Of a stretch of 64,000 bases of DNA, positions 10,831 to 26,494 are shown piece after piece. The stretch is from the NCBI GenBank assembly GCA_047602405.1, contig JASGHJ010000001.1, positions 768,001 through 832,000 on the forward strand. Reading direction: 5' to 3'. Under the pieces are notes generated by a model that saw nothing but the letters and a program-made list of their open reading frames with translations, searched no databases and was not told where the DNA came from. The stretch is from Anaeromyxobacteraceae bacterium (GTDB taxonomy: Bacteria; Myxococcota; Myxococcia; Myxococcales; Anaeromyxobacteraceae). The translations under genes were made by a program, and so were the position numbers. How positions within the stretch are numbered: the first letter of the stretch is position 1; every line of letters begins with the position of its first letter.

Positions 10831-10878
10831 CCGTCAGCCCCGAGCGTAGCCCGCCGCAGGCGGGCGGAGACGAGGGGC
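10831..10878. repeat. REP-like palindromic element (inverted relative to the 10605 copy)
   Basis: CCGTCAGCCCCGAGCGTAG-CCCGCC-GCA-GGCGGG-CGGAGACGAGGGGC. Confidence 0.85.
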
Positions 10879-19163: not shown

Positions 19164-19580
19164 ATGGCCAACCTCAAGAACTCGAAGACCGAGAAGAACC
19201 TCAAGGACGCGTTCGCGGGCGAGTCGCAGGCGAACCGCCGCTACCTCTACTTCGCGAAGGTCGCCGACGTGGAGGGCTACCCGGAGATCGCCTCCAACTT
19301 CCGCGAGACCGCCGAGGGTGAGACCGGCCACGCGCACGGCCACCTCGACTTCCTGAAGACGGTCGGCGACCCGGCCACCGGCCTCCCGCTCGGCGACACG
19401 ACCCTCAACCTCAAGGCCTCCATCGCCGGCGAGACGCACGAGTACACGGACATGTACCCGGGCATGGCGAAGACCGCCCGCGACGAGGGCTTCTCCGAGA
19501 TCGCCGACTGGTTCGAGACGCTCGCGAAGGCCGAGAAGAGCCACGCCGGGCGCTTCGAGAAGATGCTGAAGACGCTGTAA
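19164..19580 (+). CDS. Short rubrerythrin (ferritin-like, no rubredoxin domain)
   Basis: [47 protein letters not shown]. Confidence 0.95.
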
Positions 19581-19588
19581 TTGACCGA

Positions 19589-19723
19589 CCCTTCGACTTC
19601 GGCCCGCCTGACGGCGGGCCTACGCTCAGGGTGAGCGAACCTGGCCGCCCTAGTCCGCTCATCCTGAGCCCTTCGACTTCGCCACCTACGGTGGCTACGC
19701 TCAGGATGAACGGAGTCGAAGGA
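19589..19723. repeat. Cluster of REP-like elements (one simple, one nested)
   Basis: 19589-19638 CCCTTCGACTTC-GGCCCGCC...GGCGGGCC-TACGCTCAGGGTGAGCG; 19655-19723 CCGCTCATCCTGAGC-[CCTTCGACTTC-GCCACC-TAC-GGTGGC-TACGCTCAGGATGAACGG]-AGTCGAAGGA. Confidence 0.85.
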
Positions 19724-19757
19724 TGAGCAGCCTGTTCGCTGAGAAGAGGGAACCGTC

Positions 19758-20320
19758 ATGCGTCCCGTGAAGCGCGAAGAGATCCTCGACCTCGCCGCCT
19801 ACGAGAAGTCCCGCGAGGCCATCCGTCCGTCCATCCTCGACGCGAAGCGCCGCCGGCGCGTCCACGTCGGCGGCGTGCTGACGTTCCTCTTCGAGAACAC
19901 GGCGACCGTGCGCTACCAGGTGCAGGAGATGCTCCGGGCCGAGCGCATCCAGAAGGAGCCGGAGAATCGCGCACGAGATCGAGACGTACAACGAGCTCGT
20001 CGGCGGGAAGGGCGAGCTCGGCTGCTCGCTGCTCATCGAGATCACCGACCCCGAGGAGCGCGCGAAGAAGCTCGGGCAGTGGCTCGCGCTCCCGAAGCAC
20101 CTCTACGTGAAGACCGAGGACGGCGAGAAGCACCGCGCCCGCTTCGACGAGCGGCAGATCGGCACCGACCGGCTCTCGTCGGTGCAGTACCTCCGGTTCG
20201 ACGTGAAGGGTCGCCAGGCCCATCGCGGTCGGCAGCGACCTGCCCGGCCTCACCGCCGAGACGGCGCTCGACGGCGAGCAGCGCGAGGCGCTGCGGCAGG
20301 ACCTCGCGAGCGACGCCTAG
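19758..20320 (+). CDS. DUF3501 family protein (+1 frameshifts near 19966 and 20215)
   Basis: AYEKSR...KRRRRVHVG...[20 protein letters not shown]...(EIETYNEL)...[11 protein letters not shown]3501 is the usual partner of short rubrerythrins. Confidence 0.85.
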
Positions 20321-20424
20321 GCGGTCCGCTGAAGGATCACCGTCGATCCGCCGGAGCAGGACCGTCCGTACGCTGACGCAGTACGGCGTTGCGCCCGGCC
20401 CGCGCCCTCGGTTATCCCCGGAGC

Positions 20425-21918
20425 GTGAGCCCACCCTCGAGCCCCGCGCAGGCGCCCGGCGCCCGGCCCGACCCGTCCGCTCCGCCCGCCATCTCGCTCC
20501 TCGGCGCCGCCGTCCGGTACGGCGCCGTCACGGCGCTCGCGCCGCTCGACCTCGCGCTCCGCGCGGGCGAGCGCGTCGCGATCGTCGGGCCGAGCGGCGC
20601 GGGCAAGACCACCCTCCTCAAGCTCCTCAACACCACGCTCGCGCCCACCGAGGGCACCGTGGCAGTGCTGGGCGAGGAGCCGGCGCTGCTCTCCGCGCGG
20701 GCGCTCCGCCGGCTGCGCGCGCGCATCGGCACCGTCCACCAGCAGCTGCACCTCGTCCCGCAGGCGACCGTCTTCCAGAACGTGGTCGCCGGCCGGCTCG
20801 GGCGCGCGACGCTCGCCGGTGCGCTCGCGGCCCTGCTCTCGCGGCGCGAGGCCGCGGCGGTGCGCGCGCTGCTCGCCGAGGTCGGCATCCCGGAGAAGCT
20901 GCACGAGCGGCTCGACCGGCTCTCCGGCGGCGAGCAGCAGCGGGTCGCCATCGTCCGGACCCTGCACCAGGCGCCGGACCTCGTGCTCGCCGACGAGCCG
21001 CTCTCGGCGGTCGACCCCGAGCGCGCGAGCGAGCTCGCCGCGCTGCTGGCCCGCGCGTACGCGGGGCGCACGCTCGTGGTCTCCACGCACCGGATCGAGC
21101 CGCTGCTGCCCCACGTCGACCGCGTGATCGGCCTGCGCCGCGGGGAGCTCGCCTTCGATCTCCCGGCCGAGCGGGTGCGGCTCGCGGACCTGTCGCGCGT
21201 GTACCGCTCGGAGCGCGCGGAGGCAGGCCAGGCCTCCGGCCTGCGCGCCGCGCCGGGCGGGCCAGCGGCCGCGACCGTCGACGAGCCGGCCGGCCTCCTG
21301 ACGCTCGCGGCCTCGAGCACGCCGGCCGAGACCGTCGTCCCGCCCGCGCTGCGCCGCTTCGTGCGGCTCTACCCCGGCGTCCGGCTGCACCTCGTGCAGG
21401 GCGGCTCCGCGGCGGTCGAGGCAGCCGTGCGGGAGGGCCGGGCGGAGCTCGGCTTCGTCGGCGCCCGGCCCCTCGCCGACGGGCTCGAGCAGACGCTCGT
21501 GGCCGACGACGAGATCGTCGCGGTGGCCGCGCCGGCGCTCGACCTCGGCCCCCTGCCGCTCGCGCTCGAGGACCTCGCCCGGGTCCCCCGCGTGGAGCGC
21601 GAGGCGGGGTCCGGCACCCGCGCCGTGCTCGAGGACCACCTCCGCGGGCTCGGCGTGACGCTGCCGCCGGCGGTGCTCGAGGCGGAGGGGCTCGCGGCCC
21701 TGCGCGCCGCCGCGATCTCCGGCGTCGGGCTCGCGTTCGTCTCGCGCCGCGCGGTGGCGGACGACCTCGCGACCGGGCTGCTCCGGGTGGTGCCGGTCGC
21801 CGGGCTCGAGATCCCGCGGCACGTGTTCGCAATCCACCGGCCGGCGCCCTCGCCGTCGGCCCGGGCGTTCCTCGAGGTCGCGCGCGCCTGCGCCGGTGCG
21901 CCGGGGGCCGGCGGGTGA
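20425..21918 (+). CDS. PhnC-like ABC ATPase fused to a LysR substrate-binding domain
   Basis: GPSGAGKTT, LSGGEQQRVAI, LADEP and STH, followed in frame by GLLTLAASSTP...FVRLYPGVRL...REAGSGTR...GVGLAFVSRRAV (LysR effector domain). No HTH. Confidence 0.9.
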   Translation: MSPPSSPAQAPGARPDPSAPPAISLLGAAVRYGAVTALAPLDLALRAGERVAIVGPSGAGKTTLLKLLNTTLAPTEGTVAVLGEEPALLSARALRRLRARIGTVHQQLHLVPQATVFQNVVAGRLGRATLAGALAALLSRREAAAVRALLAEVGIPEKLHERLDRLSGGEQQRVAIVRTLHQAPDLVLADEPLSAVDPERASELAALLARAYAGRTLVVSTHRIEPLLPHVDRVIGLRRGELAFDLPAERVRLADLSRVYRSERAEAGQASGLRAAPGGPAAATVDEPAGLLTLAASSTPAETVVPPALRRFVRLYPGVRLHLVQGGSAAVEAAVREGRAELGFVGARPLADGLEQTLVADDEIVAVAAPALDLGPLPLALEDLARVPRVEREAGSGTRAVLEDHLRGLGVTLPPAVLEAEGLAALRAAAISGVGLAFVSRRAVADDLATGLLRVVPVAGLEIPRHVFAIHRPAPSPSARAFLEVARACAGAPGAGG

Positions 21919-23594
21919 AGCGCCCGTCCGTGCCTCGACGGGCCGGGGACGATCGGGCCGCTCGCCCGCCCCTCCCCGCCTTCCTCCGCTGGCCCGCGCT
22001 CGTAGGGATGGCCGTCGTGGCCGTCGCCTGGCGGGTGGTCGACGGCGACCTCGCCCTCCTCGTCTCGAAGGACGCGCGCGGCGCCATGGCCGACTTCGCG
22101 CGCGGCTTCTGGCCGCCCGCCCACGACGCCGGGCTGCTCGCCCTGCTCGCCCGGCCGCTCGTCGAGACGCTCGCGATCGCGTTCCTCGGCATGACGGTCG
22201 CGCTCGCCCTCGCGCTGCCGCTGTCGATGCTCGCCGCCGATCCCGCGCTGCTCGTCGCGGGCGGGGAGCGCCCCTCGGCCGCGCGCCGGGCGGCGTGGAT
22301 GGCCGCGCGCGGGCTCCTCAACCTGATGCGGTCGATCCCGGAGATCGTCTGGGCGCTCGTCTTCGTGCGCGCGGTCGGGATGGGTCCGACCGCCGGCGTG
22401 CTCGCGATCGGCATCGGCTACGGCGGCATCGTCGGGAAGGTGTTCGCCGAGACCTTCGAGTCGACGCCGCGCGGCCCGTCCCGCGCGCTCGCCGCCGCCG
22501 GGGCGCGGCCCGCGGGGGCGTTCCTCTTCGGCGTGCTGCCCGGCGCGCTGCCGCTCCTCTCCTCCTACACGCTCTACCGGCTCGACTGCGCGCTGCGCGC
22601 CTCCGCGGTGCTCGGGCTCGTCGGCGCGGGCGGCATCGGGCTGCAGCTCGAGCTCTCGATCAAGATGTTCGCGTGGGACGAGGTCGCCGCGATGGTGCTC
22701 GGCCTCTTCGGGCTCGTGGCCGCGCTCGACCTCGCCTCGCGCCGCCTGCGCCGGCGCATCCACGCGAGCCGGGGGTTCCTGCCCGCGGGCCGGCGCGGCG
22801 CGGCCGTGCGGCTCGCGATCCCGGTCGCCTGGCTCTCCCTGGCGGCGGGCGCGGTCGCGTTCCTCCGGCTGCCGCTCGGCGAGCTCTTCTCGCTGGAGAC
22901 GCCGCGGAGCGCGTGGGCGTTCGTCGCCTCCACCTGGCCGCCTGACGTGTCGCCCGCCTTCCTGCGCCAGCTCGGCCCCGCCGTGCTCGAGACGCTCGCG
23001 GTGAGTGTCGTGGGGATCGCGATCGCCGTCGCGCTGGGGCTCCCGCTCGCGCTCCTCGCGGCGCGCCGCGGGCCCTCGGCGGCGCTCGCGCGCGTGCTCC
23101 TCGCGCTCGGGCGGACGCTGCCGGAGCTCCTGTGGGCGCTGCTCGTGATCTTCGCGGTGGGCCTGGGACCCTTCGCCGGCGCCCTCGCGCTCGGCCTGCA
23201 CACCGCCGGCGTGCTGGGCCGGCTCCACGCCGAGGCGCTCGAGGAGGTGCCGCAGGCGCCGGTGCTCGCGCTCCGGGCCATGGGCGCGCCCGCGCTCTCC
23301 GCCGAGGCGTTCGCCGCCTGGCCGCAGGCGTTCCCGCAGCTCGCCGCGTACACGCTCTACCGCTGGGAGGTCGCCATCCGCGCGTCCGCGGTGCTGGGCG
23401 TCGTCGGCGCGGGCGGGCTCGGGCAGCTCCTCCACGTGTCGCTGTCCCTCTTCCACCACCACCGCACCGCGACGCTCGTGCTCGCGATCGTGTTGCTCGT
23501 GACCGCGGTGGACCTCTTCTCCGGCTGGCTGCGCGCGCGGATCCTCGCGGGCCGGCCGCTCGTCGCCGCGGCGGCGACGCTGGAGGCGGCGTGA
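21915..23594 (+). CDS. PhnE/PtxC-type ABC permease with two tandem permease domains
   Basis: Two copies of ETLA...R(S/T)(I/L)PE(I/L)xWAL...G(M/L)GPxAG...YTLYRxxxAxRASAVLGxVGAGGxG; GTGA overlap with the ATPase stop. Confidence 0.92.
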   Translation: MKRPSVPRRAGDDRAARPPLPAFLRWPALVGMAVVAVAWRVVDGDLALLVSKDARGAMADFARGFWPPAHDAGLLALLARPLVETLAIAFLGMTVALALALPLSMLAADPALLVAGGERPSAARRAAWMAARGLLNLMRSIPEIVWALVFVRAVGMGPTAGVLAIGIGYGGIVGKVFAETFESTPRGPSRALAAAGARPAGAFLFGVLPGALPLLSSYTLYRLDCALRASAVLGLVGAGGIGLQLELSIKMFAWDEVAAMVLGLFGLVAALDLASRRLRRRIHASRGFLPAGRRGAAVRLAIPVAWLSLAAGAVAFLRLPLGELFSLETPRSAWAFVASTWPPDVSPAFLRQLGPAVLETLAVSVVGIAIAVALGLPLALLAARRGPSAALARVLLALGRTLPELLWALLVIFAVGLGPFAGALALGLHTAGVLGRLHAEALEEVPQAPVLALRAMGAPALSAEAFAAWPQAFPQLAAYTLYRWEVAIRASAVLGVVGAGGLGQLLHVSLSLFHHHRTATLVLAIVLLVTAVDLFSGWLRARILAGRPLVAAAATLEAA

Positions 23595-23623
23595 ACCCTG
23601 GCGTGCGAAGGGAGGTGAGGCGC

Positions 23624-23662
23624 GTGATCGACATCGAACGGCGCGTCCCGCTCGACCGGTGA
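23624..23662 (+). CDS. Putative leader peptide MIDIERRVPLDR-UGA (possible Sec readthrough)
   Basis: SD GGAGG(T) at 23611-23616, with GGAGG ending 8 nt before the GTG. An in-frame GTG at 23591 overlaps the permease stop. The UGA is followed by a hairpin. Confidence 0.45.
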   Translation: MIDIERRVPLDR

Positions 23663-23692
23663 GGCCGCGAGGCCCGGGCGAGTTCGCCCGCC
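23663..23692 (+). promoter_or_regulatory. SECIS-like stem-loop after the uORF UGA
   Basis: CGGGCG-AGTT-CGCCCG stem-loop whose apical loop begins about 18-19 nt after the UGA and contains GU. Confidence 0.35.
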
Positions 23693-23708
23693 ACTCTTCC
23701 TCTACATC

Positions 23709-23758
23709 CCGTTCGCCCCGAGCGTAGCAGCCGCGAAGCGGCTGCGGAGACGAGGGGC
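23709..23758. repeat. REP-like palindromic element
   Basis: CCGTTCGCCCCGAGCGTAG-CAGCCGC-GAA-GCGGCTG-CGGAGACGAGGGGC. Confidence 0.85.
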
Positions 23759-23789
23759 CCGAGCCGTCACCTTGGCCACAGGAAACGCC

Positions 23790-24650
23790 ATGTCCTTCCG
23801 CACCACCTCCGCCCTCACCCTCCTCGCAGTCCTCTCCCTCACCTCCCCGGCCCGCAGTGCGGCCCAGGAGCTCCGGGTGAGCGCCATCCCCGACGAGGCG
23901 CCCACCGAGCTCGTGCGCAAGTTCGCGCCGCTCGGCGCCTACCTCGAGAAGCAGCTCGGCATGAAGGTCTCCTTCGTGCCGGTCTCCGACTACGCCGCCA
24001 CCGTGGAGGGCCTCGCCGCCGGCAAGCTCGACATGGTCTGGTACGGCGGCTTCACCTTCGTCCAGGCGCGCCGCCGCACCGGCAACGCCGTGCCGCTCGT
24101 GCAGCGCGAGGAGGACGCGCACTTCCACTCCAAGTTCATCGTGCCCGCCTCCTCGAAGGCGCAAACCCTCGCCGACCTCAAGGGCGCGAACTTCGCGTTC
24201 GGCTCGGTGAGCTCGACCTCCGGCCACCTCATGCCGCGGCACTTCCTGCTCCAGGCCGGCATCGACCCCGAGAAGGACTTCTCGAAGGTCGCCTTCTCCG
24301 GCGCGCACGACGTGACCGCGAAGTGGGTCGAGGCCGGGAAGGTGGACGCCGGCGCGCTCAACGAGTCGGTGTTCAAGAAGCTCGTCGACGAGGGCAAGCT
24401 CGACATGACGAAGATCCGGGTGCTGTGGACCACGCCGGATTACCAGGACTACAACTGGACCGTCCGCGGCGACCTCGACCCGAAGCTCCAGGCGAAGCTC
24501 AAGGACGCCTTCCTCGCGCTCGACCCCAAGAACCCCGAGCAGAAGGCGATCCTCGATCTGCAGCGGGCGTCCAAGTTCATCCCGACGTCGCCCGCGAACT
24601 ACACCAGCATCGAGGCCGCCGCGAAGTCGGCGGGGCTGATCAAGGACTGA
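23790..24650 (+). CDS. PhnD-type ABC substrate-binding protein, resembling the putative selenate-binding subfamily
   Basis: Signal peptide; SAIPDE...FVPVSDYAATVE...DMVWYGGFTFVQAR, FAFGSVSSTSGHLMPR, FSGAHD, GALNESV, YQDYNWT. The subfamily call is from memory of the motif pattern. Confidence 0.88.
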   Translation: MSFRTTSALTLLAVLSLTSPARSAAQELRVSAIPDEAPTELVRKFAPLGAYLEKQLGMKVSFVPVSDYAATVEGLAAGKLDMVWYGGFTFVQARRRTGNAVPLVQREEDAHFHSKFIVPASSKAQTLADLKGANFAFGSVSSTSGHLMPRHFLLQAGIDPEKDFSKVAFSGAHDVTAKWVEAGKVDAGALNESVFKKLVDEGKLDMTKIRVLWTTPDYQDYNWTVRGDLDPKLQAKLKDAFLALDPKNPEQKAILDLQRASKFIPTSPANYTSIEAAAKSAGLIKD

Positions 24651-24713
24651 GGGGCGGGCTGTAGTGCGCCGACGGCGATGTCGAGGTCGGTCGCAGGCCG
24701 GCGGTTTCCCTCT

Positions 24714-24763
24714 CCGTCAGTCCCGAGCGTAGGGCCCGCGCAGCGGGCCCGGAGACGAGGGAC
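24714..24763. repeat. REP-like palindromic element
   Basis: CCGTCAGTCCCGAGCGTAG-GGCCCGC-GCA-GCGGGCC-CGGAGACGAGGGAC. Confidence 0.85.
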
Positions 24764-24796
24764 GTCACTTCGTCATTTCCGGTGGTCCGCGGAGGT

Positions 24797-25504
24797 TCAC
24801 CTCACCTCCGCGACCACCGGGTTGTGATCGCTGAGCCGCGTCCAGAGCCGTCCCGTCACGACCTCCGCCGAGACGAGCCGCTTCACCCACGCGCGCGGCA
24901 CGAAGATCCCGTCGCAGTGATAGGGCATCCTCCGGTCGCCGCTCCACCGCAGCGTCTGCGCGAGCGGTACGCCGGGGTGCATCGCCTGCCACGCCGGGAC
25001 GAGCCCGAGCTCCGCCGCGAAGCGGTCCAGGAGCCGCTCCTCCGCGCGGAGCATCCGGACCCGCTCGTCGCCGCTGCGGTAGCCCGCGACGACGTTGAGG
25101 TCGCCGCCCACGAGCAGCTCCGCGCCCTCGCCGAGTCGGGCCAGCCGATCGAGGATCGTCCCGAGCGTCCGCACGTACCCGTGCGCGCCCACGGGGCAGT
25201 GGATCGAGAACACCCGCAGCGGCTTCAGCGCACGCCGCCCCGGCAGCGTCACCTCGCCGCCCACCACCCAGCCCGAGAAGCCGCGCACCGGGAGCGGCGT
25301 GATCCCGCCGCGCCTGAGCCAGACCCCCGTTCCCCACCGCCGCCCCGGCGCCGCCTGCCACAGCGCGACACCGGAACCGGCAGGCGGCATCGCCGCCTCC
25401 TGCGCGAGGATCACGTCCGGCGCGAGCCGCTCGTGGAGCCGCTCCCACTGCCGCGCCCGCCGCGCGCTCCCGCCGACGAGGAAGTTGTAGGTGGCGATGC
25501 GCAT
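24797..25504 (-). CDS. Endonuclease/exonuclease/phosphatase (EEP) family protein
   Basis: MRIATYN, DVILAQE, GGDLN, CDGIF, LSDHNPV. Confidence 0.9.
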   Translation of the reverse strand: MRIATYNFLVGGSARRARQWERLHERLAPDVILAQEAAMPPAGSGVALWQAAPGRRWGTGVWLRRGGITPLPVRGFSGWVVGGEVTLPGRRALKPLRVFSIHCPVGAHGYVRTLGTILDRLARLGEGAELLVGGDLNVVAGYRSGDERVRMLRAEERLLDRFAAELGLVPAWQAMHPGVPLAQTLRWSGDRRMPYHCDGIFVPRAWVKRLVSAEVVTGRLWTRLSDHNPVVAEVR

Positions 25505-26444: not shown

Positions 26445-26494
26445 GCCCCTCGTCTCCGGGCCCGCTGCGCGGGCCCTACGCTCGGGGCGAACGG
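26445..26494. repeat. REP-like palindromic element
   Basis: GCCCCTCGTCTCCG-GGCCCGC-TGC-GCGGGCC-CTACGCTCGGGGCGAACGG. Confidence 0.85.

Follow-up and report, generated by a model that had tools for sequence, protein, structure and literature searches.

A conserved short leader with a SECIS-like hairpin precedes selenium and sulfur-relay genes in the Anaeromyxobacter family and probably senses selenocysteine supply

Several bacterial systems couple a short leader or a UGA codon to gene expression. TnaC, SpeFL and CruR (PMC12360218) and PepNL (PMC11890864) are short leaders whose conserved peptide ends at a stop codon. PepNL arrests at UGA, with read-through by a tRNA relieving the arrest, and also impedes some sense codons in that position (PMC11890864), and TnaC, SpeFL and CruR couple their stalls to Rho, with selenium not mentioned in the available text of that account (PMC12360218). 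In bacterial selenocysteine insertion sequence (SECIS) elements, UGA precedes a short stem whose apical loop contains a G; the published model sets UGA 16–37 nt before an apical loop of 3–9 nt, with G at loop position 1–2, a stem of 4–16 bp and a minimum free energy of at most −7.5 (PMC13188914). The Escherichia coli selAB 5′ leader carries a SECIS-type hairpin 3 nt from its Shine-Dalgarno (SD) sequence, with no leader open reading frame (ORF) described in the available text (PMC13449736), and in Treponema primitia fdhF(Sec) a UGA plus SECIS makes downstream expression selenium-dependent (PMC3892789). Here we analyze a related arrangement in 64,000 nt of DNA from an Anaeromyxobacteraceae bacterium (the window; assembly GCA_047602405.1, contig JASGHJ010000001.1, positions 768,001 to 832,000 of the forward strand), where a 12-codon ORF ending in UGA and a SECIS-like hairpin precede the gene for a putative selenate ABC transporter substrate-binding protein (SBP). 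Sequence comparison indicates that this element is a real, conserved leader unit ahead of selenium-handling genes. Counting three mechanistic readings together, we consider it quite probable that the leader senses the supply of selenocysteine (Sec) through the Sec machinery.

The leader recurs across the Anaeromyxobacter family. Pattern and covariance-model searches of 92 family genomes located 32 copies of the SD/12-codon ORF/hairpin unit in 25/92 genomes and 6/11 genera, with a covariance-model score gap between the copies and the rest (60 vs. 34 bits). The element stands above chance because of this conservation, that is, the 32 copies, the 25 genomes and the clear score gap; hairpin folding alone is modest (z −1.7 to −2.5), and the whole 101-nt leader folds no better than shuffled sequences (z 0.04). 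All 32 copies precede selenium or sulfur-relay genes, namely SBP (6 copies), TIGR04112 yedE (7), NF033796 YedE/FdhT (1), TIGR03527 yedF (1), a double-cubane reductase operon with yedF (1) and tusA-dsrE-tusA/metE (16), where hidden Markov models were run on one representative per downstream gene type and the rest were assigned by sequence likeness. TusA and DsrE are the two domains of YedF (PMC5322559). The leader is found at 7/7 yedE genes in 37 genus genomes and at 16/17 tusA-dsrE-tusA/metE loci. A metagenome search whose pattern left codon 13 free gave 33 matches, comprising 15 true copies, recognized by an SD, the hairpin and a start codon in first position, and 18 chance matches that were dropped; TGA occupies codon 13 in 15/15 of the true copies. 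The Sec machinery that the earlier note's proposed switch would need is all present in the genome, which encodes tRNA-Sec (selC), selA, selB, selD with an in-frame TGA, and rho, and selB is found in 24/25 carrier genomes, the remaining carrier having selA and selD.

The unit is narrowly distributed. Outside the family, searches of 151 order-level and 150 phylum-level genomes gave no score above 35.1 bits, four weak order-level matches on inspection included no element, and the 330 nt before six distant yedE genes, including that of E. coli, contain no SD-led ORF with UGA and hairpin. Near selA, selB, selD and six selenoprotein loci (48 loci) there was no match to the leader model (best E 0.0098), and a pattern scan of the genome collection returned 3 Anaeromyxobacter records only, with no new type of downstream gene.

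The hairpin shows compensatory change and SECIS geometry. Among 15 aligned copies, whose kinship overstates the covariation signal, the stem is 97.7% paired with two-sided changes and beats all 500 shuffles and all slid controls. Cognate arms also pair better than swapped arms (−15.1 vs. −11.1 kcal/mol). The window copy fits the published SECIS model (18 nt from UGA to loop, AGUU, 6 bp, −15.6), in agreement with the earlier note, which had called the hairpin SECIS-like; the upstream ORF (uORF), its spacing and the hairpin are also kept among copies, with the stem covarying. The model is passed by 44/47 copies (UGA 22/23, non-UGA 9/9, metagenome 13/15) and by 7/7 known selenoprotein genes of this genome, against a background of 146/600 ordinary TGA stops (56/600 at spacing 18–25). 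A stricter hairpin test, defined after both sets had been inspected, was passed by 16/18 UGA copies, 9/9 non-UGA copies and 6/7 selenoprotein genes, with a background of 2–9%. Spacing is 18–21 nt in every UGA copy passing the SECIS model. Counting the U of UGA as 1, the loop G of the window copy (23682) is at position 23, as it is in three formate dehydrogenase genes of this genome. G23 of E. coli fdhF contacts SelB. In this genome the loops AGUU and CGUGC are also present behind the UGA of its thioredoxin-like gene and its selD gene; 6/6 genomes retain the hairpin of selD. Directly after the UGA lies a further, 4-bp hairpin that the earlier note overlooked, with two-sided change in 3/4 pairs (15 sequences).

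Selection on the leader ORF acts at the level of the peptide, the conservation that marks Rho-dependent uORF attenuators. In the ORF frame 43% of differing codon pairs are synonymous, vs. 9–29% in the five other frames (28 distinct sequences), a signal favored in part by the codon-degenerate pattern with which some of the first nine copies were found, the others having been located by orthology or model. Pro9 is invariant across three codons (189 synonymous vs. 0 nonsynonymous pair differences), Arg7 uses four codons, and Ser at positions 6 and 8 is encoded by both AGY and TCN. The start codon varies (GTG, ATG, TTG, CTG) and its distance to the SD is fixed; all 23 UGA-type copies pair with the anti-SD sequence (−11 to −23 kcal/mol). 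The leader peptide is likely to slow the ribosome.

Codon 13 divides the copies into two forms. Among the 32 genome copies it is TGA in 23, CGA in 1 (a draft genome, where it is not verifiable) and a sense codon in 8, and UGA accompanies a strong SD in 23/24 SD-bearing copies. The eight sense-codon copies have no SD and stop three codons later (6 TAG, 2 TGA), mostly too near the loop for SECIS function, and 7 of the 8 have a −10-like hexamer 5–8 nt ahead of the in-frame start, a pattern that suggests translation as leaderless mRNAs. Across all 47 copies the codon is TGA, CGA, GTC, GCC or TCC and never Cys, so the UGA/Cys interchange that the earlier note had looked to is not seen.

Individual loci add further observations. 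This genome holds a second, non-UGA copy (C2:3593187-3593268) preceding tusA, dsrE and a TusA-fused MetE-like gene; its locus (G000:C2:3590940-3593268, L259) lies directly downstream of fdhD and a Mop/TOBE gene. A Sec form of TusA-MetE was considered and rejected, as the aligned parts of 17 loci show no in-frame stop. Two metagenome copies (L213, L233) precede a gene for an acyl-CoA dehydrogenase resembling Rv1679 (below cut-off), and no genome copy has this context. One genome (G175), with tusA-dsrE lacking the element and no selB match, was tried as a Sec-negative control and dropped because it has selA, selD with UGA and tRNA-Sec (two matches over the Rfam cut-off); its apparent Sec-negative state is an assembly gap. 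Upstream of its tusA-dsrE locus (L267:1080-1170) is a direct repeat of ~40 nt, possibly a decayed or replaced leader. Elsewhere, one yedE gene is cut short by foreign sequence (G015, L087), one SBP gene is frameshifted (G012, L015), and in two genomes (G021 and G013; L298, L014) a leaderless SBP gene lies on the strand opposite to the ATPase and permease.

Sequences beyond codon 13 gave little sign of a conserved output. Every feature that the earlier note had listed (the SD, the GTG at 23624, the TGA, the hairpin and the out-of-frame crossing at 23790) is where it was placed, and past the UGA the window frame stays open for 1002 nt and passes over the ATG at 23790 in a different register. As a conserved output this overlap fails: among the 23 UGA copies, 12 read out of frame over the next start, 9 stop before the gene and 2 fuse to it in frame, with no protein conservation past codon 13. 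Both TTCCT (23697) and AGGAA (23780) are present, and the anti-SD pairing proposed for them finds no support: cognate pairing of the 3′ arm or the tract with the ribosome-binding site (RBS) is weaker than swapped pairing. An additional GTG at 23591 is in frame and overlaps the permease stop as noted earlier; it is in frame in 4/6 copies and its peptide is not conserved. A test for an alternative helix between the uORF and the 5′ arm gave P = 0.097, a helix between SD and uORF predicted by RNAalifold was rejected (no two-sided changes, no cognate signal), and RBS opening energy barely shifts as a modeled ribosome advances (means of 10.5, 11.0, 11.0 and 10.3 kcal/mol). The tract after the hairpin has a C>G skew of 0.24 in the window and at least 0.2 in 19/32 copies (background 0.03 ± 0.18). 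The idea of a Sec switch on the binding-protein gene thus gains from a unit that travels with selenium genes, from the machinery and from conservation, and loses both outputs first proposed for it, the anti-SD pairing and the overlap.

The lack of constraint beyond codon 13 makes the ribosome's dwell time at that codon, not a read-through product, the most probable signal. The explanation we favor, tentatively, is that under selenium shortage the leader maintains expression of the selenium-uptake gene behind it; we prefer it because six copies head the importer's SBP and read-through often overruns the next start. Ribosomes would load on the strong SD and arrive at the UGA with the conserved peptide in the tunnel, where the peptide would slow termination by release factor 2 (RF2), as PepNL and TnaC do at UGA. 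The ribosome would then pause at codon 13, the hairpin lying immediately in front of its mRNA entry channel, and the delay in RF2 action would leave time for SelB-Sec-tRNA. When Sec-tRNA is short, the paused ribosome would shield the leader, most likely from Rho with the C-rich tract helping, and the gene would be made; with ample Sec-tRNA, hairpin-bound SelB would insert Sec and clear the ribosome, and the gene would be turned down. PepNL-like hindrance at sense codons could let non-UGA copies stall too. A broader possibility, which we rate as rather unlikely, is a two-mode, ribosome-read selenium regulon in which Sec insertion frees the arrested ribosome at UGA copies and docking of SelB-Sec-tRNA without decoding gates the leaderless non-UGA copies.

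Several observations count against low-selenium activation through UGA decoding. The copies share ancestry and are not independent observations; GC-rich DNA passes the SECIS model easily (24% background); selB occurs in 72/92 family genomes, which makes its co-occurrence with the leader weak evidence; and among 15 close SBP loci the element is present in 5 and cleanly missing in 10. TGA makes up 60% of stops in this genome and ordinary genes also keep it (SBP 13/14, permease 12/12, tusA 16/16, yedE 5/5; less so dsrE, 4/17, and selA, 16/23), so TGA conservation by itself is weak evidence. The earlier note had taken loss of the UGA, uORF or hairpin in orthologues as grounds for abandoning its idea, and this has come about in part: 9/32 copies lack UGA at codon 13 and all nine keep the peptide and the hairpin geometry, so UGA decoding is not the element's sole use. 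There is no intrinsic terminator (a U-run in 1/32 copies), and pairing and opening-energy tests found no consistent RBS switch. The C-rich tract is missing (negative skew) in 7/32 copies, and where the leader is long, the C-rich stretch is out of reach of a ribosome waiting at the UGA, an arrangement that better suits the opposite polarity.

With that polarity, Sec insertion would allow translation to continue in step with RNA polymerase, the ribosome would mask the C-rich tract, and selenium would therefore switch on genes for the trafficking, export or use of surplus selenium. The tract begins ~30 nt past the UGA, within the stretch that the read-through frame traverses, transcription of Treponema fdhF passes the SECIS only with selenium (PMC3892789), and YedE has been proposed as an exporter (PMC5322559); we nevertheless hold this arrangement to be unlikely, given that the gene behind six copies encodes an ABC importer's binding protein, that read-through ribosomes would cross the downstream start out of frame in 12/23 copies, a course that would hinder it, and that the tract is absent from the copies with negative skew. 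Binding of SelB-GTP-Sec-tRNA might instead hold or block the leader ribosome on its own, UGA decoding being incidental. Such an operator would account for the SECIS geometry kept in 9/9 non-UGA copies, including the second copy in this genome, and has a precedent in the E. coli selAB leader (PMC13449736), but the hairpin lies ~90 nt from the SBP SD, vs. 3 nt in selAB, and the joint occurrence of UGA and strong SD suggests that the codon matters in those copies, which leaves us doubtful of it. 

The remaining alternatives dispense with Sec sensing. The peptide could sense a small molecule (selenide or a sulfur compound) in the tunnel, TnaC-style; the UGA would then be no more than the usual stop, and the hairpin, SECIS-like by chance, would serve pausing or protection. 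The peptide is indeed the most constant feature, ordinary genes match its TGA conservation, tusA-dsrE-metE, not labeled selenium-specific in any library, follows half of the copies, and the SECIS-model background is high. The loop G and 18–21-nt spacing are however held while stems change, the loops equal true SECIS loops of this genome, and the peptide is without Cys, Met or another obvious ligand-binding residue, and we give this alternative a low probability. A nonregulatory product, either a very small selenopeptide or, the second option of the earlier note, an N-terminal extension of the SBP that contains Sec and has been disrupted by the downstream repeat, is largely refuted and very improbable: two SBP copies (G010, G015) do read through in frame, but 4/6 do not, and three of these four are repeat-free, whereas the in-frame G010 copy bears the repeat. 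Nothing past codon 13 is conserved, no copy among 47 has Cys there, and the same leader precedes six unrelated gene types.

The leader lies within a transporter operon (Table 1). The fusion of the ATPase to a LysR domain is found in 10/10 relatives checked, and this domain could be a ligand-sensing brake on the transporter; its best LysR model is the selenium-associated NF040786, below cut-off. The window SBP weakly matches an Rv1680 SBP-like model, and TusA weakly matches Rv1681. An Rfam scan of 19500-25500 gave two chance matches, neither on the leader element, and no sigma-70 promoter or terminator match was found in 20100-24900. The repeat downstream of the leader has a variable inner stem and is missing from 4/6 SBP-type leaders; in the window it also occurs at 24722-24761, 10839-10876 and 26447-26486. 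Seven selenoprotein genes with in-frame UGA occur in the genome (three formate dehydrogenases, two peroxiredoxins, one thioredoxin-like gene and selD), at C2:525753, C2:776837, C2:3601568, C1:1570133, C2:707865, C2:2215535 and C2:257317 (G000).

Table 1. Features of the leader and its operon in the window (REP, repetitive extragenic palindromic)
Feature	Coordinates	Strand	Remarks
Shine-Dalgarno of leader ORF, strong	23610..23618	+	GGAGG at 23611
Leader ORF, 12 codons, core I-E-x-R-x-P-L-D/E/Q	23624..23662	+	Peptide-level conservation; GTG at 23624 opens V-I-D-I-E-R-R-V-P-L-D-R
UGA at codon 13, stop or selenocysteine	23660..23662	+	23/32 genome copies, 15/15 metagenome copies
Small 4-bp hairpin, often with GNRA-type loop; spacer between UGA and SECIS-like stem	23663..23674	+	
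SECIS-like hairpin CGGGCG-AGTT-CGCCCG	23675..23690	+	Loop AGUU 23681-23684, G at 23682
C-rich, G-poor tract, possible Rho loading site (weak); includes TTCCT	23691..23716	+	C>G skew
REP-like intergenic repeat (core); passenger, outside the element	23717..23756	+	148 genome copies
Putative selenate ABC transporter SBP, gene under leader	23790..24650	+	TIGR04553 366 bits, cut-off 250
Double PhnE-type permease (start approximate)	21918..23594	+	TIGR01097 over cut-off
PhnC-like ATPase fused to LysR substrate-binding domain (start approximate)	20389..21918	+	PF00005, PF03466

In the open full-text literature we came upon no account of a bacterial leader ORF that senses Sec, although a supplementary motif catalogue could hold one, and according to a 2022 review no high-affinity selenium transport system has been identified (PMC9312934). 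If the leader does report Sec-tRNA supply, some 70 nt would form a natural attenuator for the 21st amino acid, with possible use as a biosensor of selenium or Sec charging. It would also serve as a sequence tag for selenium-supply genes, six types of gene being grouped by it so far; comparing natural UGA and non-UGA copies would separate SelB binding from decoding. Were both modes in use, an elongation factor would be the ligand of an arrest peptide, and tusA-dsrE-metE, the double-cubane reductase operon and the TIGR04553 transporter would be marked as selenium-supply genes.

Compared with described systems, the element shares parts with each. Like the SECIS elements of fdh, prx and selD in this genome, it has UGA and then a G-containing loop on a short stem (PMC13188914), but it ends a 12-codon leader, has neither Cys homologues at the UGA nor a conserved frame after it, and in nine copies keeps the hairpin without UGA. 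Like the selAB leader (PMC13449736), it would use a SECIS-type hairpin to report Sec-tRNA supply to selenium genes; here, however, a conserved UGA ORF precedes the hairpin, the regulated start is 79–211 nt from codon 13, and the window hairpin ends ~90 nt from the SD (23690 to 23780). In Treponema fdhF the element sits inside a selenoprotein gene (PMC3892789), whereas here it is a portable leader before nonselenoprotein genes. None of the stop-codon arrest leaders TnaC, SpeFL, CruR and PepNL uses SelB or SECIS, judging from the available text of their accounts (PMC12360218, PMC11890864), and the likeness to them is one of design, with no sequence likeness seen. The leader motif is R-V/A/S-P-L and not of the RAPP type (R-A/G-P-P, RAGP, RAPG), a motif that tolerates few substitutions and for which RAPL is absent from the main text of its description (PMC12992588). 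The attenuators trpL, hisL and the mycobacterial polycysteine leaders (bioRxiv 10.1101/834739) likewise use one kind of leader for several genes of one nutrient pathway and likewise come in SD-led and apparently leaderless forms; they differ from the element here, in which a single, putatively recoded codon, UGA, takes the place of a series of cognate codons and in which we found neither an intrinsic terminator nor a covarying helix that would sequester the RBS. The leader is not a selenoprotein gene and departs in defining features from the classical, RAPP and selAB types, yet it would work like a leader-peptide attenuator, and among the systems compared the mycobacterial polycysteine leaders (bioRxiv 10.1101/834739) are its closest regulon-level analogue.

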